This document shows positions 2,445-26,743 of a stretch of 64,000 nt of DNA, one piece after another. The DNA is taken from assembly GCA_965224245.1 (NCBI GenBank), contig OZ245046.1:896001-960000 (forward strand), in the 5' to 3' direction. The position numbers and the translations under genes are program-made. The notes under the pieces were generated by a model. The model was given only the letters and a program-made list of their open reading frames with translations, searched no databases and was not told the DNA's origin. The first letter of the stretch is position 1, and every line of letters begins with the position of its first letter. The stretch is from Candidatus Eiseniibacteriota bacterium (GTDB taxonomy: Bacteria; Eisenbacteria; RBG-16-71-46; CAZAMP01).

Positions 2445-2644
2445 CTCGAGCCCCGTACGTTCACCCGACGCGGGCTCGAAGTCCTCTCTACCTCTCTGTT
2501 TGGAAGGCCGTTCGAACAATCGCGATAACCGGCTGGCTGCAGCAACGTTGTCTGGTTGACTACTGGCGTACCCGCTCAGAGTTTGCACTGTCTCACACGG
2601 GTCACCATGGTCTGTCATGTAAGTGCATTTCGACAAATGGGTTA
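2445..2644 (+). repeat. Intergenic element A, copy 1
   Basis: CTCGAGCCC..GGGCTCGAA hairpin, CTCTCTACCTCTCTGTTTGGA, GTTCG, AGTTTGCACTGTCTCACACGGGTCACCA, TAAG..GTTA box; aligns with 17834-18033 and 26546-26743. Confidence 0.85.
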
Positions 2645-2700
2645 TGAGCCTACTCGCCCCCCCCTCGGCCAGCGTGATCGATCACTTCGCTTGAACTAGC

Positions 2701-2791
2701 CTGTCCCATTCGACCAGTTCTGACGCGGAGTGTCTTAGACCGCCCTCACTTCCCCGGCAGGCCCTGTCCACATCCGTCGAGCTTGCCGCGT
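2701..2791 (+). promoter_or_regulatory. Two tandem candidate ECF promoters CTGTCC-N17-CGCG upstream of the lipoprotein gene
   Basis: 2701-2727 and 2764-2791; same motif and spacing at 10005-10033. Confidence 0.5.
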
Positions 2792-2872
2792 GGTGATCGG
2801 AACGTCGCTACCGAAGGAAGAGTGAACCGTGGAGCCCGTACTCGACGGGAAGCCCCGAAACGAGAGAGAGTC

Positions 2873-5119
2873 ATGCGTAACCTATTGCTAATGATCGCGA
2901 TGTCACTCGAAACCCTTGTCGGCTGTTCACCAGACGGGGATGCTGGGGTCGGTCCCCGAGACGACGCGCCCCAGGAGGCAGCCACGATCGACGCGGATGG
3001 CGGCACGGTCACCGCAGTGTCCGAAGGCGTGAGCTCCTCGTTGAACTTTCCCCCGGGATCGCTCGGCGAAACGACCCGCATCGCGCTCCTGCCCGGCGAG
3101 GCGGAAGAGGGCGAGCTGGCCCGGTTCCGGATCGACGCCGACGAGCGGCGACTGCGGCGGCCGGCCAGCTTCCGGTTCACACTCCCGGACACCGTGGCCC
3201 CCGAACGCCTGGCGATCTTCCTGGAGACCGGAGCCCGCCGTGTCCCCCTCGTCACGTCGGTGGACGGTGGTGATCTCGTGGCCGAGATCTGGAGCTTCGG
3301 ACTCGACCTCGGCGACATCGGCACCGGTCGGTCAGGCGGCCTCTTCTCGGATGCGTTCATCGCGTACCTGGATTGTCAGTGGGAGCACGACCTCGTCCGC
3401 GAGGAACTCGTCCGCCTGAACGCGTGGATGTCCATGGACGGCGAACCGGGCATCGTGACCAGCCGGACCGAGCAGCTGATCGCACGGCTGAACGCGGTGA
3501 AGATCAGTTGCGGGGGTGTCGAGGGAACGGACGAGCTGGTGCAGTACGCGATGACGGCGAGCTGCGATCGCTACCGCGAGGCCTACGTCGATGCAGCGGC
3601 ACTGCCACCGCCGTCTGACTACGACACCATGCTCCGCCAGATCGTGCCCGTGCTGTCCAGTCATGCCGTCGTCGAGAACGTTGGCGTCGAGGCCTGCGGC
3701 TCCCCGATGTACCCGCTGATACAGGATGAGCTCTCGTCCTTCGTCGATCAGTATGCTGCCGAGATCACGGCCCCCGGCTACCTCGACGGCGCCGGGCCGT
3801 GGCGGCTGGTGTGGGCAGACCTCCGGTCGACGATCGGCAACCTCGCCGCCGACGTGGAAATGCTCGGCGTGGCGGAGGAGGTGCCCGTCTACGAGGATCT
3901 CGTGTACCCGCTCGCGAACATCCTCCGGCGTGCGGCCTACCAGTCGTGTCGTGAGTTCAACACCCAGGTGTACCTCGTCGACCTTCTCACCGGTGGGTGG
4001 TACCTCGAGCACCCCATCAGCCCGACGTCCGACCCATCGATCCTGAACCTCGAGTCGAGTGCGGTTCGGGAAGACGTCGAGCACTGTGCCTGCGAGTTCA
4101 CGGTGAAGGCCTTCGACGCCATCGGTGAGGTACTGGCCGAGGAGTCACTCGGCGGCGGCGATGCTCCCGGATCGGCCGTCACTACGGCGGCGATGTTCGT
4201 TCCGGCGGATGGCGTCCTCGAGTTCAGCGGATCCGTGCGGGCGTTTCGGTGCGAGCCTCCCGATCGGTCCGCCAGCTGGAGCATCGATCGCCTGGTGGTC
4301 CGGATCGGCGACGACGAGCTGGCCAGTCGCTTCGCCGGTGCGGACGGCCAGTACCTGAGCACGCCGCTCGACGTCTCCATGGAGGACGTGCTGGCCGCCG
4401 ACGCCTCGCGTCCCATTCTCCTGACCGTGCACCGCGTGGGCCCCGCGTGCGGTGGCTGGTACGCGGGGCACGCCGGTGAAGCGGAGGTCGACACTCAGCT
4501 ACTCGAGATCGAGCTCCGCTCCAACTTCGTGGTGCGGGACGGGGAGTTCGAGGACGGGGACTGGTCGCACGATCTCTTCGTGAACCATCCCAGCGGGGCC
4601 GGCCGTGCCTCCGTCGCGCGCTCGGGCTCGGCCGGCAACCCCGGAGCCGCCCAGACCGGCCGTCACGACTTCGGCCCGGGCGTGCTGACGTACGGACACC
4701 TCAACAACGAGGCCTGGTACGCTCCCGCGACGGACGGACCCATCTCATCGGTGTCCTTCTCGATCCAGTTTTCAGTCACGGCCGGCGGCGGTGCTTGCGG
4801 TGGTGATCCCGGCAATCCCCAGGTCTCTTGCGGGATGTTGCTTCATCAGGATGGGCACTACTTCAAGACCGGCGAGGCCTGGCTTTCAGCAGGGCAAGTG
4901 TCGGGCTGGGTGACGATTGCCGCACGCGATCTGACCGCCGAAGACTTCCGGCGCATTCGCGCCGACGGAACCACGGAGGCGGTTCACCCGGACTTCACCG
5001 AGAAGGGAAACCCGATCACCCTCGGGTACGGAACCGGAAACAGCACCGGGCTAGACACCTGTGTCCGGGACTGGAAGGTGGACAACTTCTACGTCGAGGT
5101 CGTGCCGGAGGAGCGCTGA
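2873..5119 (+). CDS. Hypothetical lipoprotein-like protein
   Basis: Long ORF; ATG 2873 after purine-rich RBS; MRNLLLMIAMSLETLVGC resembles a lipobox signal. Confidence 0.65.
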   Translation: MRNLLLMIAMSLETLVGCSPDGDAGVGPRDDAPQEAATIDADGGTVTAVSEGVSSSLNFPPGSLGETTRIALLPGEAEEGELARFRIDADERRLRRPASFRFTLPDTVAPERLAIFLETGARRVPLVTSVDGGDLVAEIWSFGLDLGDIGTGRSGGLFSDAFIAYLDCQWEHDLVREELVRLNAWMSMDGEPGIVTSRTEQLIARLNAVKISCGGVEGTDELVQYAMTASCDRYREAYVDAAALPPPSDYDTMLRQIVPVLSSHAVVENVGVEACGSPMYPLIQDELSSFVDQYAAEITAPGYLDGAGPWRLVWADLRSTIGNLAADVEMLGVAEEVPVYEDLVYPLANILRRAAYQSCREFNTQVYLVDLLTGGWYLEHPISPTSDPSILNLESSAVREDVEHCACEFTVKAFDAIGEVLAEESLGGGDAPGSAVTTAAMFVPADGVLEFSGSVRAFRCEPPDRSASWSIDRLVVRIGDDELASRFAGADGQYLSTPLDVSMEDVLAADASRPILLTVHRVGPACGGWYAGHAGEAEVDTQLLEIELRSNFVVRDGEFEDGDWSHDLFVNHPSGAGRASVARSGSAGNPGAAQTGRHDFGPGVLTYGHLNNEAWYAPATDGPISSVSFSIQFSVTAGGGACGGDPGNPQVSCGMLLHQDGHYFKTGEAWLSAGQVSGWVTIAARDLTAEDFRRIRADGTTEAVHPDFTEKGNPITLGYGTGNSTGLDTCVRDWKVDNFYVEVVPEER

Positions 5120-5244
5120 GCGTGTCGAAACGAATGGTCGGCGCTCGGTTTCCCGGGATCGCTGCGTCGTTCCGACCAGATGCGTGACGATGCTCCGGAC
5201 GTGAGCAGCGATCGCGATGCAGGATCAACGACCGAGGGTGAGTG

Positions 5245-5847
5245 TCATTCTGACGGACTGTCGTTCGAGCTCCGCGAGCTCTCGCCCTGCATGTCGCGGT
5301 AGAGCCACGCCTGAGCGTACTGGCAGTAGCGGCGAACGGATCGCGGTGTGACGTTCAAGACCTCAGCGATCTCCTCGTCGGGCACGCCGGCGAAGAGCTT
5401 CAGCTCCAGCACCCGCGCCTTCTCGGGGGCATGCTCGGTGAGGCGGGTCAGCGATTGATCGAGCGCGATGACGTCGAGCATCGGAACGTCGGCGGCCGAT
5501 ACCGTGATCGCGTGATCGAGGTCGATCGGCGTGACACCTCCGCCTCGGCGAAGGCGCTTCTTGCGGCGGGCATGATCGACGAGCACGCGTCGCATGGCCT
5601 GAGCGGCGATGGCGAAGAAGTGCGCGCGATCCTTCCACTCGGCCCGGGTCTGATCGATGAGCTTGAGGTAGGCCTCGTGCACGAGCGCCGTCGCCTGGAG
5701 GGTGTGGTCCGGTCGCTCTCGGGCGAGGTAGTACTGGGCGAGTCGGCGCAGCTCGTCGTAGACGAGGGGCAGCAGAGTGTCGGCCGCATCGGCTTCCTTG
5801 GCCGACGCCGCCTGGAGAAGTCTCGTGGCCTGGTCTGCACCGGACAT
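5245..5847 (-). CDS. ECF sigma factor, kinase-associated (ECF43/TIGR02999-like)
   Basis: LLPLVYDELRRLA, HTLQATALVHEAYLKL, HFFAIAAQAMRRVLVDHAR, sigma4 HTH. Confidence 0.92.
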   Translation of the reverse strand: MSGADQATRLLQAASAKEADAADTLLPLVYDELRRLAQYYLARERPDHTLQATALVHEAYLKLIDQTRAEWKDRAHFFAIAAQAMRRVLVDHARRKKRLRRGGGVTPIDLDHAITVSAADVPMLDVIALDQSLTRLTEHAPEKARVLELKLFAGVPDEEIAEVLNVTPRSVRRYCQYAQAWLYRDMQGESSRSSNDSPSE

Positions 5848-5950
5848 GTGACGACACCTCCCATGTTCCGTCGCCGTGGTTCACGAGTATAATCGTGTGA
5901 CGACTCGTGTAGGTCAACCTGCTCACATTGCTTGCCGGAGCCCCGCCCGC

Positions 5951-9973: not shown

Positions 9974-10004
9974 TGTCTGTCCAGCGCAGGAATCTCTCCG
10001 AAAG

Positions 10005-10033
10005 CTGTCCAAGATCCTTCTCGTTGTCGCGTA
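10005..10033 (+). promoter_or_regulatory. Candidate ECF promoter CTGTCC-N17-CGCG
   Basis: CTGTCCAAGATCCTTCTCGTTGTCGCGTA upstream of the 10230 gene; matches 2764-2791. Confidence 0.5.
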
Positions 10034-10229: not shown

Positions 10230-13200
10230 ATGAGTCATCGTGTGTCGCTTGCGATGTTTCTGCTGGCCATCGCTGCCTTGTCTCGTGCAAGTACCTTCAC
10301 CGAGGACTTCACGACCACAACCTACTGGGATGCAGCCGAGACGACCGCAAACTGGAACACCGGGGCCGGGGAGCTTGGACTGCACCCGTTCGAACCGAGC
10401 ATCGTCTCGGGTGTGGCTACGGGGCATGTGCGGAACGTGGCTGTGTCGGGGAACCTCGTCTTCGTGGCCAACGGCAGCCAGGGGTTTCTCGTGATCGACA
10501 TCACGGACCCCGCGAGTCCAGTGACCATCGGCAGTCTTCTCGACGCCTGGACTAAGTACGATCTCGCCGTGGCCGGGGATCATGTCTTCGCGGTGGGTAC
10601 GAGCGGCATTCAGGGGCTCGACGTCTCCGATCCCACCACGCCCGTGCTTGTCGGCAGCGCCGCGATACCGGGGACGTGTCTGGGCGTGGCACTGGCTGGA
10701 GACCACGCCTTCGTGGCAAACGGCAGCGATGGCCTTCGCGTGATCGACATCTCCGATCCGACGAGCCCCGCGATCGTCGGTCTCGTCGATACGCCAGGGT
10801 CCGCGTACGACGTGACGCTGGCCGGCGATCTAGCGTACGTGGCAGACCTCAACTTCGGTCTGCAGGTGATCGACATCTCCGATCCCACGACCCCTGGCAT
10901 CATGAGCAACGTCGATACGCCCGGGTCAGCAGCTTCGGTGGCGGTTTCGGGTGACATCGTGCACCTGACTGATCAGGCGGACGGACTGCACATGATCGAC
11001 GTGTCCGATCCCACATCGCCCACGATCGTCGGCAGCATCGATCCCGGCCTGGCGGCGGGCATCGCGGTGTCCGGAGACGTCGCGATCCTTGCGGACTTCA
11101 CTGCCGGGCTCCTGCTAATTGACATCACCGATCCTACGATGCCCACCATCCTCTCAAGCGCGCCGGTTCCCGCTGGCGGGACCGCGGTGACGGTAGCCGG
11201 GAACCTCGCATTTGTGGCAGACGGTAATCTTGATCTGCAGGTGTTCGAGATTGCTACTCCTGCGAGCCCTCTGAATGTCGGCAGCGTCGACACGCCGGAC
11301 GAAACCTACAGCGTCGCGATCGCCGGCGACGTCGCCTATGTGGCGGACCTGGGTTCCGGCGTCCAGGTGGTCGACATCTCTGATCCCGCGACCCCGGCAA
11401 TCATCGGCAGCGTCAACACACCGGGAGACGCCCGGGATATCGTCGCGACCGGTGACGTGGTGTATCTGGCCGATGACGCCTCCGGGCTCCAGGTGATCGA
11501 TGTGTCCGACCCCACAGCGCCGGCGATCATTGGAAGCATGGTCACTCCTGGGCGGGCACTCGGCCTCGCCGTGGAAGGCGATCTGGCCATCGTGGGAGAC
11601 TTCACGTCGGGACAGGTACTGACGGTCGATATCTCCTCGCCGGCGGCTCCAAGCATCGTCGGTAGCGTGCTCACGCCCGAGCGCCCCTTCAGCGTGGCGG
11701 TGGCCGGCGATGTCGCCTACGTGACCGACTACAACGTCGGTCTGCGGGCAATCGACATCTCCGATCCCGCGATCCCGGTGGAGATCGGTTCCGTCGCCAC
11801 ACCGGGCCCTCCGCGAACGGTCACCCTGTCCGGCGACGTCGCCTTCGTATCGGCCCGCGAGGCCGGCGTGGTGGCCATCGACGTCTCGGATCCAACCACG
11901 CCGACGATCGTTGGCAGCGTCGACACGCCGGGGTTCGCCACCGGCGTGACGGGCATCGCCGTCGCCGGCGACGTGGCGTTCGTGGCGGACTACGACTTCG
12001 GGGTCCAGGTGATCGACATCTCCGATCCCACGACGCTCGCGATCATCGGCGGGCTCGATACACCCGGCCTGTGCCGGAGCGTCGTGCTAGCCGGCGAGCA
12101 CGCCTTCGTGTCCGATGGTGAAGTCGGCCTCCAGATGATGCGCGTCTTCCAGCACACGTTCGATGAGTCTCGCAACGTCGGCCAGTCTCTGCCGCTACCC
12201 ACGGGTACCGACATCGTCATGAAGACGCGACTCTCGAGCGTTCAGACCGATCACGTCAGCTGGGAACTCAGCGCGAACGGGGAGAGCGATTTCACGTCGG
12301 TCGTTCCGGGCGCGGACTGGATGACGATCAACCCCGGCCAGAATCTCGTGTGGCGGTCGACCCATGCGCTCTCGGCGTCCCTCGCGAACCCCGCGGCCCA
12401 GGAGGTGACGATCGAGTGGCTCACGAAGTGGGCGCCGATCATCTCGATCACCGACGTTCCCGACGACGAGGGGCGCGCGGTATCGCTCACACTGACCCGC
12501 TCGGCGCACGAGTTCGACGACGAGACGACCTTCCCGGTGGTCGGCTACGCGATCTACCGGCGGGTCGACCAGGCGTCACTCGTCCGCGATGTCATGGAAG
12601 TCGGCACGATGCCCGATGCCGTCAGTCTCGACGGCACGCCGCTGGCCTCGTACGGGCCGGATCGCGTCCGTCTCATCGGCGATCGCGAGTTCGTGCTGGG
12701 CGATGCGCTGGCGGCGGGCGACGGCTTCCCCCCCGGTGTCTGGGAAGGTGTCGGCTGGGTGCTTCCCGAGCGAAGCGACACGTACACGACCACGGTCGCC
12801 ACGGCCGCCGACTCGAGTGGTTTCGGCATCCCGTGGTCGGTCTACCTCACGGCCACGCACACGACGACGCCGGCGGCGTACTTCCTGAGCGAGCCCGACA
12901 GCGCCTACTCGGTGGACAATCGCGCGCCGGCTGCACCGACGGGCCTGGCGCTCGTCGGGAACGATCTCTCCTGGGACACGGCCCCCGAATCCGACTTTGC
13001 GTATCATAGTGTCTACGGATCGTCATCATCGGAGTTCGATCCCGGAGCAACGTTCATCGACTACACGATCGATGCGACGTACGACGTGACTGGGCACGTC
13101 CATGCGTACTTCCACGTCACGACCACGGACTTCGCCGACAACGAGGGCGACGCCGCGAGCATCGAGAGTGATTTGCTGTCGGCGCCCGAAATGACGGTCC

Positions 13201-13481
13201 CGTCGGCGTACGCGCTGGCCCCACCGGGGCCGAACCCTGTCCGCAGCGGAACGACGTTGACGTTCACGTTGCCCGAGAGGGAAGAGGTGGTGCTGGTCAT
13301 CTACGACACCGGGGGGCGGGCCGTTCGGACCCTGGCTCGTGGTGCACACCGCGCCGCGGTCCATCGTGTGTCGTGGGAGGGCCGTGACGACGACGGGCGA
13401 CCCATCGCCCCGGGTGTCTACTTCGCACGTCTCCGCGCGGGCGCGTTTCACGCGGAGCGTCGTCTCACCGTGGTCCGGTGA
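10230..13481 (+). CDS. Secreted LVIVD-repeat protein with FlgD-Ig C-terminal domain
   Basis: Signal peptide, FTEDFTTT N-terminal motif, LVIVD repeats, paralogous to 2..2422 and 57909..61253. Confidence 0.9.
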   Translation: MSHRVSLAMFLLAIAALSRASTFTEDFTTTTYWDAAETTANWNTGAGELGLHPFEPSIVSGVATGHVRNVAVSGNLVFVANGSQGFLVIDITDPASPVTIGSLLDAWTKYDLAVAGDHVFAVGTSGIQGLDVSDPTTPVLVGSAAIPGTCLGVALAGDHAFVANGSDGLRVIDISDPTSPAIVGLVDTPGSAYDVTLAGDLAYVADLNFGLQVIDISDPTTPGIMSNVDTPGSAASVAVSGDIVHLTDQADGLHMIDVSDPTSPTIVGSIDPGLAAGIAVSGDVAILADFTAGLLLIDITDPTMPTILSSAPVPAGGTAVTVAGNLAFVADGNLDLQVFEIATPASPLNVGSVDTPDETYSVAIAGDVAYVADLGSGVQVVDISDPATPAIIGSVNTPGDARDIVATGDVVYLADDASGLQVIDVSDPTAPAIIGSMVTPGRALGLAVEGDLAIVGDFTSGQVLTVDISSPAAPSIVGSVLTPERPFSVAVAGDVAYVTDYNVGLRAIDISDPAIPVEIGSVATPGPPRTVTLSGDVAFVSAREAGVVAIDVSDPTTPTIVGSVDTPGFATGVTGIAVAGDVAFVADYDFGVQVIDISDPTTLAIIGGLDTPGLCRSVVLAGEHAFVSDGEVGLQMMRVFQHTFDESRNVGQSLPLPTGTDIVMKTRLSSVQTDHVSWELSANGESDFTSVVPGADWMTINPGQNLVWRSTHALSASLANPAAQEVTIEWLTKWAPIISITDVPDDEGRAVSLTLTRSAHEFDDETTFPVVGYAIYRRVDQASLVRDVMEVGTMPDAVSLDGTPLASYGPDRVRLIGDREFVLGDALAAGDGFPPGVWEGVGWVLPERSDTYTTTVATAADSSGFGIPWSVYLTATHTTTPAAYFLSEPDSAYSVDNRAPAAPTGLALVGNDLSWDTAPESDFAYHSVYGSSSSEFDPGATFIDYTIDATYDVTGHVHAYFHVTTTDFADNEGDAASIESDLLSAPEMTVPSAYALAPPGPNPVRSGTTLTFTLPEREEVVLVIYDTGGRAVRTLARGAHRAAVHRVSWEGRDDDGRPIAPGVYFARLRAGAFHAERRLTVVR

Positions 13482-13528
13482 TATGGAATGACCCTGTCAA
13501 GAGGCGAGTCTCTCCGGTCGGGAGGGGG

Positions 13529-14881
13529 GGATGCGTCCCGATTGTTGTGGAAAAGCGTAGCGCCCTCCTGATTGCGTGATAGTAGCGCGTTACGCGGCGT
13601 CTCGGCACCTCCGAGCCGAGATCGTGGCCACGTGCTGGTGTCCGTTGATCTTGCGCATCTTGATCTGACCGAACGCAACGAGACCGTAGAGCAACGTCAG
13701 CGCCGCCTCTTCGGTCGAGAACGACGCTTGGGTCTTGGTCCGCCGGCGGAACTCTCGGTTCAGATTCTCGATCGAGTTGGTCGATCGCAGCGACTTCCAC
13801 ATCGGCTTGGGGAACTCGTAGAACGTGAGGAGCTGATGCCCCACCTCCTCGAGACTTCTCGCGACGGCCGGACAGAGCGTCCGCCACTTACCCAGGAACG
13901 CGTCGTACGCCCCTCGTGCGTCCATGGCCGAGGTGGCCATGACGATCGCGTGGTAGTCGCGGGCGAGCTCAGGCCGGGCATGGACCGGACAGCACGCCTC
14001 GAGATTCGCACGCTTGTGAACCGTGCACCGCTGAACGCCAGCTTCGGGCCAGAGCGCAACCGCGCGAAGCAGTCCTTTGTGACCGTCGCTGATGATCAGC
14101 TCAGGACTCGGGAGTCCGCGAGCCCCAAGGTCCTCGATCACCGCGCCCCAGTTCGTCGCCGCCTCGCTGGCGGCGAGTCGAAGCGCCACCAGGCGCTTGT
14201 TTCCGGCCTCATCGACGCCCATCACCACCAGGACCGGCACGCTCACCACCCGGCGAGCCAGCCGCACCTTCAGGTGGATCGCATCGAGCATGACGATCGG
14301 ATAGGTCTCCTCGCTCAGGTCCCGCTCGCTCCAGCTCTGGAACAGCGCCTTGAGTCGAGATACGACCCGAGAAACGGCGCTCTTCGAGAGGTTCGCTTCG
14401 CCAAGAAGCGGCAGAAGCGCCTTGCGGATACGTCGACTGTTCGCGCCGGCGAGATACACCCCGAGGATGGCGTCGTCGACCCGGCGGGTACGACGGGCGT
14501 AGCGGGGCAGGATCTCGCTCGTGAACTCGGTGGTGTTCCCCGACTCGTCGCGGACGCGAGCCCTGGGAACCGAGATCTCCATCGGACCGGACTCCGTCGT
14601 GATCGTTCGCGACGTTCGCCCGTTCCGATAGCCTCGACGCTCATCGGTCCGCTGGTATCGAGAAGACCCGAGAAGCTCCGACAGCTCCTCCTCGATCACG
14701 ACCTCGACGACCTGTGCGATCCGCTGCTGGAGAAGCTCACGAACGACGTGACGGACGGGAAGTTGGGACGGAGCGGTGGTAGACTGAGCCATGGCGTTTC
14801 CTCCTCGCCCGGTGGGCGGTCTGGTTTGGCAACCAGGAGGTTACGCCATTTTCGTTTTTCCACAGGACTCGGGACGGATCC
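13529..14881 (-). mobile_element. IS256-family insertion sequence, copy 1
   Basis: TIRs GGAT(C/G)CGTCCCGA..TGTGGAAAA; 8-bp target duplication GGAGGGGG (13521-13528 / 14882-14889). Confidence 0.93.
13590..14792 (-). CDS. IS256-family (mutator-type DDE) transposase
   Basis: RRGYRNG, SKSAVSR, MLDAIHLKV, ISDGHKGL, QRCTVHK, RSTNSIENLNREFRRR. Confidence 0.95.
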   Translation of the reverse strand: MAQSTTAPSQLPVRHVVRELLQQRIAQVVEVVIEEELSELLGSSRYQRTDERRGYRNGRTSRTITTESGPMEISVPRARVRDESGNTTEFTSEILPRYARRTRRVDDAILGVYLAGANSRRIRKALLPLLGEANLSKSAVSRVVSRLKALFQSWSERDLSEETYPIVMLDAIHLKVRLARRVVSVPVLVVMGVDEAGNKRLVALRLAASEAATNWGAVIEDLGARGLPSPELIISDGHKGLLRAVALWPEAGVQRCTVHKRANLEACCPVHARPELARDYHAIVMATSAMDARGAYDAFLGKWRTLCPAVARSLEEVGHQLLTFYEFPKPMWKSLRSTNSIENLNREFRRRTKTQASFSTEEAALTLLYGLVAFGQIKMRKINGHQHVATISARRCRDAA

Positions 14882-15364
14882 GGAGGGGGTCGCCTCTCTT
14901 CGTATAGACGAGTTCGAGATGACATCGATCAATGGCGGCTTCGACGACGAGTCACGCTGCTGTTCGCGGGTTGAACCGGCGTCTCGGCCAGAGCCGCATG
15001 TGATCCGTCGGGAGAGGACGCTGTCTGAACTCGCGGGTTCGGGAGTGAACTCCGTACCGCACACCGCAGTTGCGCGCCGTCTCCAGATTCGTGCCTTCGA
15101 TCAGATGTCACCTCGAACGTCAACATCGTGGTGTCGTCAGTGGGCGATCGCGAGCCGGTCATTCCATCTTGTCTGAGCTGATCACGGGAAGTTCCATGGG
15201 CTCTGGGTCTTGGCGCGCCTACGCCTTGCCGACGCGAATGACGCCCGTGAGCCCGTTACCCTTGGCGTCTGGAGACGAGCGTGCTGTGATACGTATCCGT
15301 TCGGTGAACCCATGTTGAGCCCATCGGCCGGTCCTGAGAACGTGCGCACCCGAGGAGGTGCCGC

Positions 15365-15721
15365 ATGCTCTCGAAGTCGATCACGACCGCGCTCGCCCCG
15401 ATCTCCGACAACCGCTACTGGCGGGAGTCGGACGCGGAACGCGCACTTGCCATCTGGAGCCAGAGTGGGCTCACACTGAACGCCTTTGCGCGACAGTGTG
15501 GCCTCAGTGTGTCGCGACTGCGCCGCTGGAAGTCCAAGCTCGAGGCCGACGGCAGCCCCCGCTTCCACCCGGTCGAGATCGTGGAGACGGCTGACGCCGA
15601 CGTGGCCGACTCCGACGCCGGTATCGAGCTCATCGTCGGACAGCGCCACCGGATCGTCGTCCGCCGCGGCTTCGATCGCACGCTGCTACACGAGCTCATC
15701 GAGGCGCTCGATCCGTGCTGA
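15365..15721 (+). CDS. tnpA: IS66 accessory protein TnpA
   Basis: W..SGLT..AFA...GLS...L..W HTH; first ORF inside IS66 TIRs. Confidence 0.8.
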   Translation: MLSKSITTALAPISDNRYWRESDAERALAIWSQSGLTLNAFARQCGLSVSRLRRWKSKLEADGSPRFHPVEIVETADADVADSDAGIELIVGQRHRIVVRRGFDRTLLHELIEALDPC

Positions 15722-16095
15722 CCCTGCCGCACACCGTGCGCATCTACATCGCCGCTGAGCCCGTCGATCTCCGCAAGGGCTTCGACGGGCTCTCGGCGGC
15801 CACGCGCGAGATCATCTCCGCCGATCCCCTCTCGGGACACCTGTTCGTGTTCATCAACCGGCGCGCGAACCGGATGAAGATCCTCGTCTGGCAGCCCTCG
15901 GGCTATCTCCTCGTCTACAAGCGCCTCGAACGCGGCCGCTTCACGCTCCCGCGCCACCCCGAGGTCGGGTCCTCGCACGTCGAGATCGAGTCGTCGGAGC
16001 TGACGTTGCTCCTGGATGGGATCGATCTTCGCGGCTCCCAGCGCCGGAGTCGCTGGTCGCCGAAGAAGGGACTTGCCTGGCGCGCGACGATGTGA
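15715..16095 (+). CDS. tnpB: IS66 accessory protein TnpB
   Basis: PVDLRKGFDGL, LFVFINRR, KRLERGRF, LLLDGIDL. Confidence 0.93.
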   Translation: MLTLPHTVRIYIAAEPVDLRKGFDGLSAATREIISADPLSGHLFVFINRRANRMKILVWQPSGYLLVYKRLERGRFTLPRHPEVGSSHVEIESSELTLLLDGIDLRGSQRRSRWSPKKGLAWRATM

Positions 16096-16107
16096 TTCAA
16101 AGAGTGC

Positions 16108-17721
16108 ATGACCTTCGCGCAACTCACTCGTGAACTCGAGCGCTTCCGCTCCGAGCTCCAGACGCTGGCCGCCAACGGCCGTACCGATGACGCGATCGAG
16201 AAGGCGTTCGAGCGCATGCGCCTGCTCCTGCACCGGAACCTCCATCTCGAGCTGGCGCTGTTCGCCGAGCGTCGCAAGCGCGCGGGGATCCGGAGCGAGA
16301 AGGTGGACCCGGCTCAGCTGTTGTTGATGTTGGCCAAGATGCCCGAGAACAACGTCGATCCCGAGAACGATCTCGACGACACCGAGACCGACGATGCGCA
16401 GCTGACGGAGGAGATCGCGGCGGCCGAAGCGGCGTTGCCGAGTCCGCCGACGCGGCGGCCCCGCCGGCAACGGCTCCCCGAGACACTCCCACGCGAGATC
16501 GTGACCCACACGCTGCCGGAGCAGGATCTGCCTTGCGGCACGTGTGGCGTTCCGATGAAGGCGATCGGCGAGGACGTGAGCGAGATCCTGCGCCTGGTCC
16601 CCGCCCGGTTCGAGGTCGAGGAGCACCGTCGCACGAAGTACGCGTGTTCGACGTGCAAGGACGCGGTGGTCACCGCGCCGGGGCCCGCCAAGTTCATCGA
16701 CAAGGGTCGTGCGGCGCCGAGCCTCTTGGCGCACGTCGTTCAAGCGAAGTACCAGGACCACATCCCGCTGGCGCGGCTGAGCGAGATCTACGCCCGCGGC
16801 GGGGTCGCGATCGCGCGCTCCACGCTCTGCGACTGGACGGCGCGCGTGGCCGAGGAGCTACGGCCCATCGCCGAGCGGATCTGGGAGAAGGCGTTCCACG
16901 CGCACACGCTGCAGAGCGACGCGACCGGGCTGCGGGTGCTCGATCGTGACGACCCGAACGGGGTGCGGATGGGCACGATGTGGTGCGCCATCGGGGATGG
17001 GACGTACGCGGCGTTCCACTACGCGAAGACCGGCACGGGCGAGGACGGCCCGTGGCGCTTCCTGGCGGGCCGCGAGGGCTATCACCAGGCGGACGCGGCG
17101 ACGGTCTACGATCGGGTGTACAACGGCGAGGTGGCCAGCGCGATCGAGGTCGGCTGCTGGGCGCATGCCAGGCGGGGCTTCGAGGCGTTGCGCGACACGG
17201 ACTCTCGCGTGGCGTATCCGCTGAAGCTGATCGCGCAGCTGTATCGAGTGGAGACGCTGGCCGATCGGCGTGGGCTCGATCCCCCCGAACGCCAGGAGCT
17301 CCGCACCGAGCGCAGCCGAGCGATCCTGGATCGGCTCGATCGATGGATCGTGCGAACCGAAGAGTCCGAGCCGCCCGAGAGCGCGCTGTCGAAGGCGTGC
17401 GGGTACGTCGTGAATCAACACGACGCGCTCTGGTGCTTCCTCGACGACGGACATCTGCCGTTGGACAACAACCTGTGCGAGCGGCAGTTGAGAGCGGTCG
17501 CCGTCGGTCGGAAGAACTACCTGTTCGCGGGATCCGACCGGGCCGCCCAGCGCGCGGCGATCCTCTACTCCGTCGTGCGCACCGCCGCGCTGGCGAAGAT
17601 CGACGTCTACGCGTATCTCATCCGCGTTCTCGAGCGCATCGCCGATGGGTGGCCCGACGCCAAGATCGACGAGCTGCTGCCCGAGAACCACGTTCCCTGC
17701 TACGAAGCAGACCCCAGGTAG
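16108..17721 (+). CDS. tnpC: IS66 transposase TnpC
   Basis: C..CG/C..C zinc finger, KYQDHIPL, CWAHARR, DNNLCERQLR..AVGRKNYLFAGS. Confidence 0.95.
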   Translation: MTFAQLTRELERFRSELQTLAANGRTDDAIEKAFERMRLLLHRNLHLELALFAERRKRAGIRSEKVDPAQLLLMLAKMPENNVDPENDLDDTETDDAQLTEEIAAAEAALPSPPTRRPRRQRLPETLPREIVTHTLPEQDLPCGTCGVPMKAIGEDVSEILRLVPARFEVEEHRRTKYACSTCKDAVVTAPGPAKFIDKGRAAPSLLAHVVQAKYQDHIPLARLSEIYARGGVAIARSTLCDWTARVAEELRPIAERIWEKAFHAHTLQSDATGLRVLDRDDPNGVRMGTMWCAIGDGTYAAFHYAKTGTGEDGPWRFLAGREGYHQADAATVYDRVYNGEVASAIEVGCWAHARRGFEALRDTDSRVAYPLKLIAQLYRVETLADRRGLDPPERQELRTERSRAILDRLDRWIVRTEESEPPESALSKACGYVVNQHDALWCFLDDGHLPLDNNLCERQLRAVAVGRKNYLFAGSDRAAQRAAILYSVVRTAALAKIDVYAYLIRVLERIADGWPDAKIDELLPENHVPCYEADPR

Positions 17722-17833
17722 GCCTCACCCGACAGCGCGCCGGGACACGGGCTGATCACCCGGATGGGATGCCCGAACGGTTACTGTGATACGGCACTCG
17801 TGGTGCTGCGCGGGCTCACGGCAGCGGGATTTG

Positions 17834-18033
17834 GAGCCCCAGCCGGTCTCCCCGATATCGCTTGGGGCTCGAAAACATCTCTACCTCTCTGTTTGGAGTG
17901 ACGTTCGGTTGATCGCTGTAAGTTGTTGGTGGGGGGGTGTCGTGATCTTGGCGAGGGTCGGACGGAAGAGTTCGAACCGCCTCACTCGGGTCACCACTGA
18001 TGCGTCCGTAGCGGCTTTATCGGCCGCGGGCTA
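17834..18033 (+). repeat. Intergenic element A, copy 2
   Basis: GAGCCCC..GGGGCTCGAA, TCTCTACCTCTCTGTTTGGA, GTTCG, AGTTCGAACCGCCTCACTCGGGTCACCA, TAGC..GCTA box. Confidence 0.85.
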
Positions 18034-20472: not shown

Positions 20473-21825
20473 GGATCCGTCCCGAGTCCTGTGGAAAAAC
20501 GAAAATGGCGTAACCTCCTGGTTGCCAAACCAGACCGCCCACCGGGCGAGGAGGAAACGCCATGGCTCAGTCTACCACCGCTCCGTCCCAACTTCCCGTC
20601 CGTCACGTCGTTCGTGAGCTTCTCCAGCAGCGGATCGCACAGGTCGTCGAGGTCGTGATCGAGGAGGAGCTGTCGGAGCTTCTCGGGTCTTCTCGATACC
20701 AGCGGACCGATGAGCGTCGAGGCTATCGGAACGGGCGAACGTCGCGAACGATCACGACGGAGTCCGGTCCGATGGAGATCTCGGTTCCCAGGGCTCGCGT
20801 CCGCGACGAGTCGGGGAACACCACCGAGTTCACGAGCGAGATCCTGCCCCGCTACGCCCGTCGTACCCGCCGGGTCGACGACGCCATCCTCGGGGTGTAT
20901 CTCGCCGGCGCGAACAGTCGACGTATCCGCAAGGCGCTTCTGCCGCTTCTTGGCGAAGCGAACCTCTCGAAGAGCGCCGTTTCTCGGGTCGTATCTCGAC
21001 TCAAGGCGCTGTTCCAGAGCTGGAGCGAGCGGGACCTGAGCGAGGAGACCTATCCGATCGTCATGCTCGATGCGATCCACCTGAAGGTGCGGCTGGCTCG
21101 CCGGGTGGTGAGCGTGCCGGTCCTGGTGGTGATGGGCGTCGATGAGGCCGGAAACAAGCGCCTGGTGGCGCTTCGACTCGCCGCCAGCGAGGCGGCGACG
21201 AACTGGGGCGCGGTGATCGAGGACCTTGGGGCTCGCGGACTCCCGAGTCCTGAGCTGATCATCAGCGACGGTCACAAAGGACTGCTTCGCGCGGTTGCGC
21301 TCTGGCCCGAAGCTGGCGTTCAGCGGTGCACGGTTCACAAGCGTGCGAATCTCGAGGCGTGCTGTCCGGTCCATGCCCGGCCTGAGCTCGCCCGCGACTA
21401 CCACGCGATCGTCATGGCCACCTCGGCCATGGACGCACGAGGGGCGTACGACGCGTTCCTGGGTAAGTGGCGGACGCTCTGTCCGGCCGTCGCGAGAAGT
21501 CTCGAGGAGGTGGGGCATCAGCTCCTCACGTTCTACGAGTTCCCCAAGCCGATGTGGAAGTCGCTGCGATCGACCAACTCGATCGAGAATCTGAACCGAG
21601 AGTTCCGCCGGCGGACCAAGACCCAAGCGTCGTTCTCGACCGAAGAGGCGGCGCTGACGTTGCTCTACGGTCTCGTTGCGTTCGGTCAGATCAAGATGCG
21701 CAAGATCAACGGACACCAGCACGTGGCCACGATCTCGGCTCGGAGGTGCCGAGACGCCGCGTAACGCGCTACTATCACGCAATCAGGAGGGCGCTACGCT
21801 TTTCCACAACAATCGGGACGCATCC
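20473..21825 (+). mobile_element. IS256-family insertion sequence, copy 2
   Basis: Same 1353-bp length and TIRs as copy 1; flanks CAATCGGT / CAATCGCA (6/8 match). Confidence 0.93.
20562..21764 (+). CDS. IS256-family transposase (identical protein to 13590..14792)
   Basis: Identical 400-aa translation. Confidence 0.95.
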   Translation: MAQSTTAPSQLPVRHVVRELLQQRIAQVVEVVIEEELSELLGSSRYQRTDERRGYRNGRTSRTITTESGPMEISVPRARVRDESGNTTEFTSEILPRYARRTRRVDDAILGVYLAGANSRRIRKALLPLLGEANLSKSAVSRVVSRLKALFQSWSERDLSEETYPIVMLDAIHLKVRLARRVVSVPVLVVMGVDEAGNKRLVALRLAASEAATNWGAVIEDLGARGLPSPELIISDGHKGLLRAVALWPEAGVQRCTVHKRANLEACCPVHARPELARDYHAIVMATSAMDARGAYDAFLGKWRTLCPAVARSLEEVGHQLLTFYEFPKPMWKSLRSTNSIENLNREFRRRTKTQASFSTEEAALTLLYGLVAFGQIKMRKINGHQHVATISARRCRDAA

Positions 21826-23814
21826 CAATCGCATATCCGCCTGCGCTCAGGGTTGTAGACCCCACCATCGTCGGGGTCTGGGGACTACTGATGTCGATGA
21901 CATCCAAGGTGCCGGCACTACTGGGCAAGGAAGCGGTTGCGACGTACGCATGAGTGCCGGCGAGTGCAATTGAACGTCCGCCCAGGTTAAGTGAAATGTT
22001 TATGTAGGGGAGGGGATTCAAGGGATTACTGATGTCGATCGGCGTGAAGTAGCCCGCGTCCTCATAGAGTTCATCGAAATCGGTAGAGGCGACAAAGAGG
22101 GTGTTGTCACAACCGGCGATCGCGCGCGCTCCAACGCCTAGATCGATTGATGCGACGATCACCGGATCGAGTGGGTCCGCGATGTCCACGACCACGAGTG
22201 CTCCTGTATCCCAGTCAACGGGGTCGACGTCTGCCGTGCCAATGTATGCGAAGTCGCCGACAACGGTGACCGCATGCCCTCCGTAGGGAAGATCGATGGA
22301 ACCTAGAGATACGGGGCTGAACGGGTCCTGGATGTCGATGATGTGGAAGGTGCCCGCATCCCAGCCTCCGTAGTTGACGTCCGCGGTCACGACGTAGGCA
22401 TGGAGATCGTCCTCGCTCAGGTCGACGGCACGGGCGCCCCAGGGAAGATTTACCGTCGATCCACTACTGAATGGAGGAGCCGCCCATATCACGTGAAAGC
22501 TGCCATAGTCTGGTCCGTTGGCCTCGACTTCCGAGAGTGCCATGAAGGCGTAGCGATCTCCATACACCTCCAAGATCTCCAGATCGTGAACTCCGTCGTG
22601 TTGACCAATGAAATGCGGGTAGTAGTTGTCATCACTCTCGAGAAACGTCGGATCGGAGATGTCCCAGACTTGATAATGGCCGCGATCGGTTCCTCCGTGT
22701 ACGTCGATCTCCGTCATGCCAAGGAACAACTCCAAGCCGACCACGTCCATGGCACGTCCGCCTCGTTCGAGGTCGTAGGTCGCCAGGACCTCGAATGCGT
22801 ACGACGTGCGGAGGGCCAGGGGAATGCCGATCAGGGTGAAGCAGAGTACAACGACACATCGTGCAAGCAGACTCGACCGTCGGGCCCGAGTCACGGAGAG
22901 TTGATCAGCCAAGCGTGGCAACCTGGCTCCGGAGCTCGCTCGTATCGAACCAAGTGCTGCACTCGGCATATCGTGCACTCCTCTGGGGGAAACCGTTGAT
23001 GGGTCTACAGACTGGACCGGCTGGGCGGCCTCAGATCAGCGGAGTATACTGCACTCGGTAATCGATGGTGCGGAACCGGGTGTCGCCCAGTCGCAGGGCT
23101 GACGGCTCCGGTGGAGCTCACCTGTCCGCGGTGATCGGTCCATCCGGAGTCTCGGTTCTTAGGCCATGCTCAGTGCCGGCCTGGGTTCGATGGCCTCCGG
23201 TGCCGGAGGCTGATGACAGGAAGCGAACCGGCTTCGGGCCAGGGCGAAAGCGGCCGTCACAGAGGCCAAGACGGCCTACCGGATCGCCCACGCGGCCTAC
23301 CGCGATGCGTGCCGCCGGGCCAGGGTGGGCTGCGAGTTCGCACGGGGGCGACCATCGTGGACGGTCAGCGTTGCGCGTTCGTAACCGTTGCCCGTCCACT
23401 CCCGGCCCTCTGCGCGCGACTCAGCGAGTGATGGGCAGTTCAGTGTCCACCGATTGCAGACCACATGGTCTCGATCGGTTTTCGGATGCTGGTGTGTCCA
23501 GCGAAGGTCGGCGCGTTCAGTGCGGGAACACTGCCCGGAGTTCCCGGAGTCGCCACTCTTGATCACCCGACGTACAATCTTCCGCCGACGGCACCGGCCG
23601 CGGATCTGGCCTCGATCCTCGTGATTGCTGTATGATCGGGCCCCAGCCACAACTTCCAGATACGCTTCGTGCTCGCCGCGATCTCCGGTCGCTCGCGTTC
23701 GTGGCGAAGCTCGGTCGTTGAGGTTTGACCCCCGTACCCCGGCGGCGTGATGCGCGGCCGCGATCCCATCGTGAGGTACGGCATCGAGACCACACGCCAA
23801 CCGGGAGGCGAGCC

Positions 23815-26520
23815 TTGCGCGATCACATCGAGAAGACACGTTCGGTCACACTCTCGGGCACATCGTCGTTCATGACCGGGCTCCTGATCCTGGCCGCGGC
23901 ACTCGTTCCGATCGCACCGTCGTTTGCCGATCCTCCACCTCAGATCGACGTCACAAACCCCGCCAACTCGTCGGATGTCATTCTCGACCGTCTGCCCGCA
24001 CATGCCGGAGCGGTCACGCATCGCGTAGAAGCCCCTCGGACGCTGCGGATCGACACGAGCACCGGTGTCTCGACCTGGGTATCGGACGACCCGAGCCTGG
24101 CGGACCGGCAGGACCCGGTGGGTCGGGGCGCCGCCACGCCGGTGTACGCCAACGACACGACCGAGCTGGCCGCGTATGTCATCCCCGGAGTGACGACGGG
24201 CGTCGTGTTCGGGGACTGGGTCAATCTGATCGAGCCGGGGAGGGTCGACGCGTGCCAGATAACCGTCTACAACGACCCCGGCTCCCCCGGGGCGCTCCTC
24301 ACGGCGACGGTGCGGGTGAGTTTCTACGATGCCAACGACTGGCCGACCTTTCCCGTGGGGTACCCGGCCACGCTGCTCGGCTCCTTCGACTACGACGTGG
24401 ACTTCGGAGCCGGCCTGTCGCCGTCGGCCACGACCATCGTTGCCCTTACCGATCTGGTCGCTTCGGGGACTGACATCTACTTGCCGACGAACATCGTGGT
24501 GGTGCAGCAGATCGTGTCGTTCACGGGCGACGTGACCGGCATCGGGATCGCGTTCTACGATCCTCCATCGATCGGCTACAGCGATGGCAGCAGCTGGTTC
24601 GTTGCGGCCGAAGGAATCGGCATCCCCTCGGGTCTCTACGGCGCCCTCTCGGGCCTGTATGGAAATCTCGGCTACCGCATCGGTCTGGAGCCGCCGGGGG
24701 GCGACGTGCTTCACGACCAGTCGGACTTCGTCGTCGGGGGCCCCGTCTTCACCGACTACTGGGGTCTCGCCAGTGGCATTCCCGGTCTCAGCGATGTCAC
24801 GGTTGACGGCGACGGCTGGAACATCGAACGCATCACCAGCTACTACGCGCTCGACCATCCCGAATGGGGTGGAAGCGTGACTGGGGGCTACGTCAGCGTG
24901 TTCCAGAAGACCGGCCCGCTGCCACTGTGGCCGGACCACAATCCCCATGACAGCCCGCTTGTCCCGATGTCCGCGTCGAACGCCGGTGACCACTGGGTCG
25001 TCACGGCCTCGGCACTGGACATCGACCTGGCACCGGGCGAGTACTGGATCGGCATCACGCCGATATCTGTCTATTCGCCCGACCGACGCCTGTCGTCCGG
25101 CACGTTTCTGGGCCATGCAACGGCGACGTGGCATGAGGGGTTCGGCACTCCCCCGTTCGGGGAGCCCCCGTACTGGTACAACGAACATCCAGGTGTGGAT
25201 GCGGCCATGCTGATCCGGGGCACCCGGCTGTGTACCTCGCCCCACATCGAAGTGGACACCACGTACTTCAACTTTGATCTGAACTTCAACGACGCGATCG
25301 CCTTCCAGCTCCCCATCAGCAACGAGAACGGCTGCTCGACACTGGACTACGAGGTCACCGGAAGCTGCCCGATAGGAACTGCGTCGGGATCGATCCCGGC
25401 CGGTGAGGTGGGTGGGCCGTGGCTCGTGATCGACCCGTTCGGGTATGCGCCGGGATCGTATACCTGCTGGCTTCAGGTGGACTCGAACGACCCGTACACC
25501 CCACTGGTCCTGGTCCAGGTCGACTTCACGCTCAACGGCACGATCTCCGATGCGGTCCCCGGGGTGCTGTACGCCACCCAGGGCACGGGCGGGATCAGCC
25601 AGTGGGTGGAGATCGATCCGCTCACCGGGGCCGGTACGGTCTCCGGATCGACGGGGCGTCTGCCGGACGATCTGACCGTCGACGGCGACGGTCGTCTCTG
25701 GGCCGCCTACACTGGCTACATCTACCGCGTCGACTCCGCAAGTGGCGCGATGGTCCGGCTCGGACTGACCGGCATGGAGACGCTCGCGAGCCACGAGGGC
25801 TTTCTCTACGGTCTCGACGTGGCCAACCAGGTGTGGCAGTTCAACCTCGACACCTACGAACAGCTCGGTCCGCTGGCGACCGTGACGCCCCACATGGACG
25901 GGTGTGCGATCGACCCGACCACTGGCATCATGTACCTGACGCCGTCCGGTGCGGGACCCGGCTCGGACACGCTCTACATGCTCGACCTTCCCGGACTCGG
26001 TGACGAAGCTGTGGCCGTGGGCCCGCTCGGGTACGGGGAGCCGATCGGCGACATCGCGTTCGACGGTCAGGGCAACCTGTTCGGCGTCATCGGTGGGGCG
26101 GGGCCGACGACGCTGGTCACGATCGACAAGACGACCGGGCTCGCCGACGACATCGGGGTGGTCGGTGTCGATCACCTGTCCGGGCTCGCGATGATCGGCA
26201 GCGGGCTTCTGAGCGCCCCGAGCGACGAGGTGTCGAGCCCGACGGCCGCCTCGTTCCGCGCGGCGTCGCCGAACCCGTTCCGCGGTGGCACGTCTCTGTC
26301 GTTCGGGTTGCCCGAGGCCGGACCCGTGAGGCTCGTCATCTTCGACGCGACCGGCCGCGAGGTACGGACCCTGGTCGATGGAACCTACCCTGCCGCCGCG
26401 CACCGCGTGGTCTGGGACGGCCGCGATCTGTCGGGGCGGACCGTGGCGCCCGGGATCTACTTCGCTCGGATCCGGGCAGGGGAGTACGAGTCGGTCCAGC
26501 GACTCACGCTGATTCGGTGA
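23815..26520 (+). CDS. Secreted multidomain beta-rich protein with FlgD-Ig C-terminal domain
   Basis: GGGAGG RBS before TTG 23815 (alternative ATG 23872); signal peptide; propeller-like repeats; paralog of 37691..40258. Confidence 0.8.
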   Translation: MRDHIEKTRSVTLSGTSSFMTGLLILAAALVPIAPSFADPPPQIDVTNPANSSDVILDRLPAHAGAVTHRVEAPRTLRIDTSTGVSTWVSDDPSLADRQDPVGRGAATPVYANDTTELAAYVIPGVTTGVVFGDWVNLIEPGRVDACQITVYNDPGSPGALLTATVRVSFYDANDWPTFPVGYPATLLGSFDYDVDFGAGLSPSATTIVALTDLVASGTDIYLPTNIVVVQQIVSFTGDVTGIGIAFYDPPSIGYSDGSSWFVAAEGIGIPSGLYGALSGLYGNLGYRIGLEPPGGDVLHDQSDFVVGGPVFTDYWGLASGIPGLSDVTVDGDGWNIERITSYYALDHPEWGGSVTGGYVSVFQKTGPLPLWPDHNPHDSPLVPMSASNAGDHWVVTASALDIDLAPGEYWIGITPISVYSPDRRLSSGTFLGHATATWHEGFGTPPFGEPPYWYNEHPGVDAAMLIRGTRLCTSPHIEVDTTYFNFDLNFNDAIAFQLPISNENGCSTLDYEVTGSCPIGTASGSIPAGEVGGPWLVIDPFGYAPGSYTCWLQVDSNDPYTPLVLVQVDFTLNGTISDAVPGVLYATQGTGGISQWVEIDPLTGAGTVSGSTGRLPDDLTVDGDGRLWAAYTGYIYRVDSASGAMVRLGLTGMETLASHEGFLYGLDVANQVWQFNLDTYEQLGPLATVTPHMDGCAIDPTTGIMYLTPSGAGPGSDTLYMLDLPGLGDEAVAVGPLGYGEPIGDIAFDGQGNLFGVIGGAGPTTLVTIDKTTGLADDIGVVGVDHLSGLAMIGSGLLSAPSDEVSSPTAASFRAASPNPFRGGTSLSFGLPEAGPVRLVIFDATGREVRTLVDGTYPAAAHRVVWDGRDLSGRTVAPGIYFARIRAGEYESVQRLTLIR

Positions 26521-26545
26521 GAAAGGCGACACGCAGCTAGATGGG

Positions 26546-26743
26546 TTCGAGCCCCGCAGGGACATCCGGCTGGGGCTCGAAGACCTCTCCACCTCTCTGT
26601 TTGGAGCGGTGTTCGATTGGTCCCGGCAAACGACTTGAGAGGTAGGGGACTGTGGGCTCAATGCCCCGACCCAGCCTGACAGTTTGGCCCGCCTCGTTCG
26701 GGTCACCATGCCCTACCTCAACATGCTTTATTGCAATGAGTTA
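26546..26743 (+). repeat. Intergenic element A, copy 3
   Basis: TTCGAGCCCC..GGGGCTCGAA, CTCTCCACCTCTCTGTTTGGA, GTTCG, AGTTTGGCCCGCCTCGTTCGGGTCACCA, CAAC..GTTA box. Confidence 0.85.

Follow-up and report, generated by a model that had tools for sequence, protein, structure and literature searches.

Modules derived from the 3' end of a tRNA-Lys(UUU) gene in a Candidatus Eiseniibacteriota genome: probable junctions of islands stacked at one tRNA

Introduction

The stacking of islands in tandem at tRNA or tmRNA genes is a process already well described in other bacteria. In Dehalococcoides, according to those parts of a 2011 study that we draw on (PMC3146451), islands are found in tandem within 100 kb downstream of ssrA, each delimited by a 20-bp repeat of that gene's 3' end, with extra conserved sequence around the repeat and insertion near the T-loop. 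The same parts of the study give a large serine recombinase as the integrase, discuss some islands without integration genes as cis-mobilizable, and demonstrate mobility and strain-to-strain variation (PMC3146451). Cis-mobilizable elements (CIMEs), as presented in a portion of a review (PMC5704250), retain an attachment (att) site at either side but no longer any genes for integration and transfer, and accrete in tandem, through successive events of site-specific integration, at the 3' ends of tRNA genes, with tRNA-Lys of Streptococcus agalactiae as an example. The array reported here is probably a further case, from an uncultured lineage. It lies in a stretch of 64,000 nucleotides (nt) from a Candidatus Eiseniibacteriota bacterium (assembly GCA_965224245.1, contig OZ245046.1, positions 896,001 to 960,000; hereafter the window), in which a module of conserved blocks ending in tRNA-like sequence is repeated on one strand.

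We think it likely that these repeats are attP-like junction modules which go back to the single tRNA-Lys(UUU) gene, more exactly to its 3' end, and that islands were stacked there, the integrases of which are now gone. As far as the partial account of the Dehalococcoides islands goes (PMC3146451), the likeness consists in the tandem layout, within ~100 kb, downstream of a small-RNA gene, the 3'-end repeats, the conservation around the repeat, an insertion point near the T-loop, a large serine recombinase, of which one lies near the tRNA here, and islands without integration genes. Measured against the same account (PMC3146451), the target here is tRNA-Lys(UUU) instead of tmRNA, a far longer arm is conserved (~135 nt ahead of the core), which includes a second, palindromic piece of the tRNA end, and no segment of the window has an integration module at its left edge. 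Like CIMEs as outlined in the portion of the review cited (PMC5704250), the window segments have att-like modules on both sides and no integration or transfer genes among the open reading frames (ORFs) scanned. Unlike the CIMEs treated there (PMC5704250), they come without a functional partner element, conjugation genes or excision being seen, they belong to an uncultured phylum, and their cargo is made up of secreted surface-type proteins.

Results

The junction module

The window contains three full copies of the module on the + strand (Table 1). In order, each is composed of a GC-rich hairpin, TTCGAGCCCC...GGGGCTCGAA (hairpin A), a CT-rich box, TCTCYACCTCTCTGTTTGGA, 5 nt, the motif GTTCG, a spacer and a 28-nt block, the core, which ends in CGGGTCACCA. 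Alignment of copies 1-3 gave a mean column identity of 71% with long invariant blocks and confirmed what the original prediction had claimed, namely three same-strand copies with a fixed order and spacing of hairpin, CT box, GTTCG and core. The spacer before the core varied in sequence among the three copies, yet hardly in length: GTTCG was always located 5 nt past TTTGGA, and GGGTCACCA began 91-95 nt past it. The 10-mer CGGGTCACCA occurred three times in the window, every time within a copy; in shuffled sequence its mean count was 0.25, and a count of 3 was reached in 0 of 100 shuffles. T-loop-like motifs of the GTTCG type recur in each full module, in one arm of the hairpin (inverted in the other arm), after the CT box and in the core. 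Judged by their sequence they could mark repeated recombinase-binding sites. A coding reading of the module was rejected because the frame in which the core would be read differs between copies 1 and 2.

The similarity between copies stopped at the CCA of the core, as expected if the copies are att junctions. A 25-nt imperfect palindrome had been proposed past the CCA as well. It did not hold up, since the likeness between copies in this stretch was not significant (shuffle z -0.2 to 2.1; the score of the best pair was matched by 74 of 2000 shuffles) and in four of five cases its folding did not surpass that of shuffles (z -0.08, -1.88, -0.29, +0.75 and +0.21).

Hairpin A extends over ~45 bp with dyad symmetry and was present also in decayed copies. 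Its pairing was kept in 83% of the cells of the alignment compared with at most 53% when the partners were slid, and two pairs were changed on both sides. Going by its sequence, hairpin A could be a recombinase dimer site, a terminator of the upstream gene, or both; its survival in decayed copies suggests a role for the host. A reading of TGA plus hairpin as a selenocysteine/SECIS signal was rejected because paralogs with a TAG stop have the same hairpin.

Origin in the 3' end of tRNA-Lys(UUU)

ARAGORN predicted 55 tRNAs in the whole genome, and GGGTCACCA was found in one of them, tRNA-Lys(UUU). The gene is located on the + strand at C1:878,813-878,888 of the main contig, which corresponds to window position -17,187 to -17,112, 19.5 kb upstream of copy 1. 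It is the predicted tRNA closest to the copies, on the same strand, and it stands at a step in guanine-plus-cytosine (GC) content. Thereby the matching tRNA anticipated by the original prediction was found. Its 3' end reads ...GTTCGAGCCCCAGCCGGGTCACCA, or at greater length GGGTTCGAGCCCCAGCCGGGTCACCA. The core of each of the three copies closes with the last 10 bases of the tRNA, and in the alignment the core also has the T-loop GTT-G in common with it. MAFFT placed a 3-base gap in the tRNA row opposite copies 1, 2 and 3, which fits the earlier parsing of copy 2 as the end of a tRNA with 3 extra nt.

The stem of hairpin A proved to be a second piece of the same tRNA end, the 17-mer GTTCGAGCCCCAGCCGG. 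With up to one mismatch this 17-mer occurred at six places in 6.9 Mb, five of them being the tRNA or copies of the module. It was exact at C1:890,178 and had one or two mismatches in four copies of the window. No trace of the 5' half of the tRNA was detected in any copy, which is the pattern of integration and not that of a duplicated tRNA gene.

Further copies

The genome comprises 6.9 Mb, with a main contig (C1) of 6.45 Mb. An nhmmer profile of copies 1-3 run over the whole genome yielded eight copies or partial copies, five of them new and more diverged. The new ones are found at window-equivalent positions 40.4k, 61.3k, 82.6k, 91.8k and 124.0k with increasing divergence, all on the + strand and all between C1:936k and 1,020k. 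A motif scan added a ninth fragment at C1:890,176. This copy, which contains the exact 17-mer, begins 20 nt past the stop of a secretion-tagged gene and reads on to ...ACTACCA; it is shortened, as an IS21 element begins ~55 nt later. Thus all nine copies are on the + strand downstream of tRNA-Lys(UUU), within ~130 kb (C1:890k-1,020k), and several of them are decayed. Neither the profile search nor the motif scan detected the module elsewhere in the 6.9-Mb genome. A profile of hairpin and box revealed no additional place in the genome, the top unrelated match having E = 0.07.

Surroundings of the tRNA gene

GC content was 0.68-0.76 over the last 8 kb ahead of the tRNA and fell to 0.575-0.59 over the 4 kb that follow the gene. 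From the window to C1:1,070k it was 0.62-0.69, with a contig mean of 0.691. The ~4 kb directly after tRNA-Lys (C1:879,000-883,000; 57-59% GC) hold a DUF6602 gene and ORFs without Pfam match and are probably the newest insertion.

In the interval between the tRNA and copy 1, the DUF6602 gene is followed by an operon of DUF2924, a 421-amino-acid (aa) large serine recombinase and a helix-turn-helix (HTH) gene, the stops and starts of which overlap. The intact large serine recombinase begins 4.4 kb from tRNA-Lys. The same interval holds a tyrosine-recombinase fragment (Pfam positions 2-83 of 172), broken off next to the IS21 element. IS21 stands between this fragment and the ninth copy, both of which are truncated there, and a single IS21-linked deletion would explain both truncations. 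The fragment belongs to a family of ~200-aa tyrosine recombinases consisting of the catalytic domain only, which is multi-copy in this genome. An integrase next to the tRNA had been envisaged by the original prediction; the recombinase genes nearby are the intact serine recombinase and the truncated tyrosine recombinase, the latter of which may be an unrelated insertion. The claim that the window lacks an integrase was correct with respect to tyrosine and serine recombinases, none of the 24 PF00589 and 13 PF00239 matches of the genome being located inside the window, yet the window does hold DDE transposases of IS3, IS66 and IS256 elements.

The multi-copy element in which this family occurs encodes a 198-aa tyrosine recombinase of the catalytic-domain-only type, three ORFs without Pfam match and, on the opposite strand, a large serine recombinase of ~590 aa. 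It was seen on at least nine small contigs of lower GC (e.g. contig C18, 7070-10629) and once on C1 (6,104,908-6,108,400). Near the latter, at 6.10 Mb, a repeat of the tRNA-Asn end was looked for and not found.

Occurrence outside this genome

The phylum was represented by 206 genomes including the present one (the set contains one genome, G083, on which no claim rests). A two-block pattern gave only chance matches in coding DNA in 40 relatives. With up to three mismatches, the box pattern had 11 matches in the phylum genomes outside this one compared with 6 for the reversed control, and none came with other blocks. An exact pattern had no match in metagenome contigs; in a species-representative collection an exact pattern had a single one, without any other block, in an unrelated metagenome-assembled genome (MAG). 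Eighty metagenome loci that encode proteins related to the C-terminal domain, with identities of 54% or less, had no profile or motif match. Of the profile search that had been suggested earlier, the part concerning the genome therefore turned out positive, with eight copies on the + strand in one region and not scattered, and the part concerning relatives negative, as the module was found in none.

The first gene to the right of copy 1 had a match in 6 of the 205 other phylum genomes and in none of the sister genus. A single other genome belongs to the family, and no closer relative was found. There, the contig (C51) ends 434 nt away from tRNA-Lys(UUU), which is followed by AT-richer sequence, so that this tRNA may be an insertion point in that genome too. 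The gene upstream of tRNA-Lys belongs to a multi-copy family in all 206 genomes and is thus of no use as a marker of synteny.

Junctions were checked on the assembled contigs of four sequencing runs from one study. Contigs bridged copies 1 and 2 in the order of the window. Among the 15 joints listed of a total of 92 there was no core-to-core, excision or circle joint; a joint at 13528/14914 was traced to a cross-mapping paralog.

Cargo genes and insertion sequences

The window belongs to an extended series of genes whose secreted products bear a FlgD_ig or Por_Secre_tail domain at the C-terminus; LVIVD, BNR or FG-GAP repeats are present in many of these proteins. Between them are pairs of an extracytoplasmic function (ECF) sigma factor and a Ser/Thr kinase and many insertion sequence (IS) elements of the IS3, IS21, IS66 and IS256 families. 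Copy 1 starts 23 nt and copy 3 26 nt past the stop of a FlgD_ig-tailed gene. Ahead of copy 2 lies what is left of a decayed coding end for such a C-terminal domain; IS66 and IS256 elements separate copy 2 from the gene 10230-13481. To the right of the cores the genes are not paralogous to each other: copy 1 is followed by a 778-aa lipoprotein-like protein, copy 2 by an opposite-strand gene fragment and then IS elements, and copy 3 by a kinase. The segments differ in gene content. Those at 2608-17829 and 17997-26545 have modules on both sides, with only cargo and IS genes among the ORFs scanned. The segments measure 8.5-15 kb or more, comprise several genes on both strands and are rich in IS elements.

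Table 1. Modules, adjoining genes and IS elements, in window positions
Feature	Position	Strand	Remarks
Secreted LVIVD-repeat protein with FlgD_ig C-terminal domain, 3' part	143..2422	+	frame continues upstream of the window; right end of the segment ending in copy 1
Copy 1	2445..2607	+	hairpin A 2445-2480; CT box 2483-2504; GTTCG 2510-2514; core 2580-2607, ending CGGGTCACCA
LVIVD/FlgD_ig gene	10230..13481	+	upstream of copy 2; IS256 inserted in the gene's own terminator-like hairpin
IS256-family element (Mutator-type transposase)	13528..14881	-	identical to the inverted copy 20473-21826
IS66-family element, three ORFs	15291..17783	+	ends and 8-bp duplication TGTGATAC read by eye; coordinates approximate
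Copy 2	17830..17996	+	hairpin A 17830-17873; CT box 17876-17897; GTTCG 17903-17907; core 17969-17996
Second IS256 copy	20473..21826	+	inverted relative to the first
FlgD_ig-tailed gene	23725..26520	+	right end of the segment ending in copy 3
Copy 3	26546..26708	+	hairpin A 26546-26581; CT box 26584-26605; GTTCG 26611-26615; core 26681-26708
Diverged copy w40	40415..40510	+	hairpin A with GTTCGAGCCCCGGTCGG, degenerate CT box, GTTCGG; 157 nt past the stop of gene 37619-40258
Diverged copy w61	61269..61357	+	hairpin A with GTTCGAGCCCCGGCCGG, degenerate CT box; directly after the stop of LVIVD/FlgD_ig gene 57798-61253

In the group of tails that adjoin modules, the C-terminal domains are 52-75% identical to the tail before copy 1, and the likeness of the modules does not track that of the adjacent domains. 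The domains of the genes 23725-26520 (26281-26520) and 37619-40258 (40019-40258) are almost the same until the stop codon, beyond which the 3' flanks bear no relation to each other. The genes 10230-13481 and 37619-40258 have another 3' flank in common, with a TATGGAATGACCCTGTCAAGAGGCGA... hairpin (13482-13527 and 40259-40330). Near-identical tails with unrelated flanks and a flank exchanged between genes indicate that recombination joins are located at stop codons.

The two IS256 copies are 1354 bp long, 100% identical and inverted. They enclose 5.6 kb with IS66, copy 2, a gene fragment and IS3; a composite transposon is conceivable here, as is a segment that can invert. Three pairs of ECF sigma factor (PF07638 type) and Ser/Thr kinase are located at 5245-9973, 27041-30726 and 49876-52271, with a different relative orientation in each; the kinases are fused to WD40/LamG, PD40 or DUF4384 domains. 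These pairs have the look of signalling modules going along with the genes for secreted proteins. A gene for a large TPR-CHAT (caspase-like) protein at 46538-49849 adjoins a kinase and ECF sigma factor gene.

Discussion

In the reading we favor, related integrative elements would have inserted successively, by site-specific recombination, at the end of the tRNA-Lys(UUU) gene. Each arrival would have restored the tRNA and shifted the older elements downstream, and each boundary would have kept an attP-like hybrid of the newer island's right arm, the common core and the unrelated left end of the older island. The right arm of ~135 nt would consist of the end of the secreted-protein gene, a ~45-bp palindrome of T-loop and acceptor sequence, the CT-rich box and the GTTCG box at fixed spacing, and the core would be the 28 nt ending in the tRNA's own CGGGTCACCA. 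Fragments of a tRNA 3' end that lie downstream of the tRNA on its own strand, with homology ending at CCA, are a trace of site-specific integration into the tRNA gene. Hybrid boundaries of the kind described would account for the sharp end of similarity at CCA, for the unrelated genes to the right of the cores, and for the conservation of boxes next to spacers that are free in sequence and fixed in length. Such boxes point to selection on the protein-binding sites of a mobile element and not to the decay of a dead scar. The tie to the tRNA, the common orientation, the clustering, the limit of homology at CCA and the recombinase genes close by are observations; from them we infer separate integration events, a recombinase that would have acted in them, and a binding-site role of the boxes as predicted sites for the recombinase and accessory proteins, sites that selection acting on the elements would have preserved ahead of their arrival. 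The segments of the window would probably be fixed, CIME-like relics reshuffled by IS elements, and the palindrome would probably serve also as a terminator or 3' stabiliser of the upstream gene. Phage lambda-type attP sites span ~200 bp, with a long arm beside a short core and protein-binding boxes the spacing of which matters. The module is like them in its size of ~200 bp, its one long arm, short core and spaced boxes; unlike lambda attP, it has no conserved arm on the far side of the core, and no cognate arm-binding integrase was identified.

Several observations weigh against this reading. The two tRNA-derived pieces of each full module are separated by ~110-135 nt, an arrangement not anticipated by a model with one simple crossover. 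The likeness between the sequence to the right of the tRNA's own CCA and that to the right of the copies was not significant, and the tRNA flank was not retrieved with a profile built from the part beyond the CCA. Because the module was not found in the 205 other phylum genomes or in the metagenome data searched, an independent arrival from outside is undocumented. Inside the array (C1:898k-1,020k) there was no match to a tyrosine or serine recombinase, within 20 kb of tRNA-Lys(UUU) in four relatives there was no tyrosine recombinase, and the tyrosine-recombinase fragment next to IS21 may be part of an unrelated mobile element. The low GC content had no right-hand end up to C1:1,070k, i.e. over at least 190 kb, and the class of genes instead of a foreign origin may be partly behind it. 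Finally, the decay of the copies does not rise strictly with their distance from the tRNA.

The modules might also descend from one old att scar at tRNA-Lys behind a secreted-protein gene, multiplied together with the 3' end of the gene by local duplication and gene conversion, with the boxes being kept by selection at the level of the host (as terminator and regulatory sites for the neighbours) and without repeated site-specific integration. We regard this as unlikely. The positions of the copies agree with it, as six of nine follow a + strand gene that has a FlgD_ig-type tail by no more than ~26 nt from its stop, one follows such a gene at 157 nt and the remaining two follow a decayed remnant of such a coding end; yet some + strand tail genes of the same group have no module. 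The tails form one paralog group by their 52-75% identity to that of copy 1, yet the tail of copy 1 is closest to that of 57798-61253 (75%), where the module is strongly diverged. Mosaic joins at stop codons show that recombination among paralogs occurs, and all copies are confined to one paralog-rich stretch of 130 kb, with none found elsewhere in the genome or outside it; on the other hand, the near-identical tails of 23725-26520 and 37619-40258 have unrelated flanks from the stop on, and the segments are not collinear duplicates. The conserved pairing of hairpin A with its two doubly changed pairs would suit a host function, whereas neither a sigma-70-type promoter nor a U-tract terminator was detected in the conserved part of copies 1-3. 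The end of the homology at the tRNA's CCA is left unexplained by duplication.

A transcribed element, i.e. a 3' untranslated region (UTR) or small RNA of ~165 nt reaching from hairpin A to CCA, is in our view improbable. Its CT box might be a pyrimidine-rich seed, or its tRNA-like 3' end might serve processing. Such an RNA would be in keeping with a hairpin directly 3' of stop codons that shows some compensatory change, with conserved blocks that are non-coding, and with the sharp boundary at CCA, which could be an RNA end. The structured non-coding RNA named as the alternative in the original prediction found no support beyond the first hairpin, however: Rfam gave no match over the window at gathering score, ARAGORN no tRNA gene in the window or in five flanking loci, and RNAalifold a consensus fold for hairpin A only, from an alignment that carried a stray 10-base piece as fourth row. 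Folding of the whole module was not clearly better than that of shuffles (z -0.99, -1.38 and -2.89 for copies 1-3 and -0.28 for the fourth copy; range over both strands -0.3 to -3.6), and neither the clustering downstream of the matching tRNA gene nor the identity to the tRNA would be explained. Arrays of integron cassettes and integrase-less clusters of attC sites also display imperfect palindromes in the same orientation after genes, with conserved ends and a variable middle, and the present array has such palindromes with no adjoining integrase. An active platform of this type, with multi-gene cassettes that lack an integrase and are to this day inserted and excised at tRNA-Lys, via the modules as cassette-borne sites, by a recombinase encoded elsewhere, is very improbable. 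The kept boxes with their free spacers suggest sites that were functional until recently, intact recombinases are available both close to the tRNA and, many times over, in other parts of the genome, and the secreted proteins of the cargo form a diversifying family accompanied by ECF sigma factor/kinase pairs. Against it, no intI/attI arrangement was seen and there is no PF00589 match in window or array, the ends of the palindrome are GTTCGAGCCCC...GGGGCTCGAA and not attC core sites, the sites are derived from a tRNA, several copies are decayed, and contigs bridge copies 1 and 2 in the given order. Moreover, the units are IS-rich multi-gene segments with genes on both strands instead of short, co-oriented single-ORF cassettes. 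The integron-like character that had been proposed for the array is at odds with these features, and for mobilisation in trans there was no supporting evidence, with no excision or circle joint among those listed.

There is also only a slight chance that the array is a working capture platform, on which multi-gene cassettes are piled up and rearranged at the end of tRNA-Lys by a recombinase encoded outside the segments; every cassette would end in the gene of a secretion-tagged surface protein and a ~165-nt, two-piece tRNA-derived site. If that were true, it would be a large-cassette, tRNA-anchored analogue of integrons that diversifies the cell-surface proteome of an uncultured phylum.

Returning to the proposed stacking of islands at tRNA-Lys(UUU), the long conserved arm, the fixed spacing of its boxes and the two tRNA pieces are concrete substrates for identifying the recombinase. 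If this reading holds, ~130 kb of the genome were built by repeated site-specific insertion at one tRNA gene. The stretch is dense in secretion-tagged surface proteins and their ECF sigma factor/kinase partners, and its assembly in this way would reveal by what route a little-known, uncultured phylum adds to and diversifies its repertoire of surface proteins.

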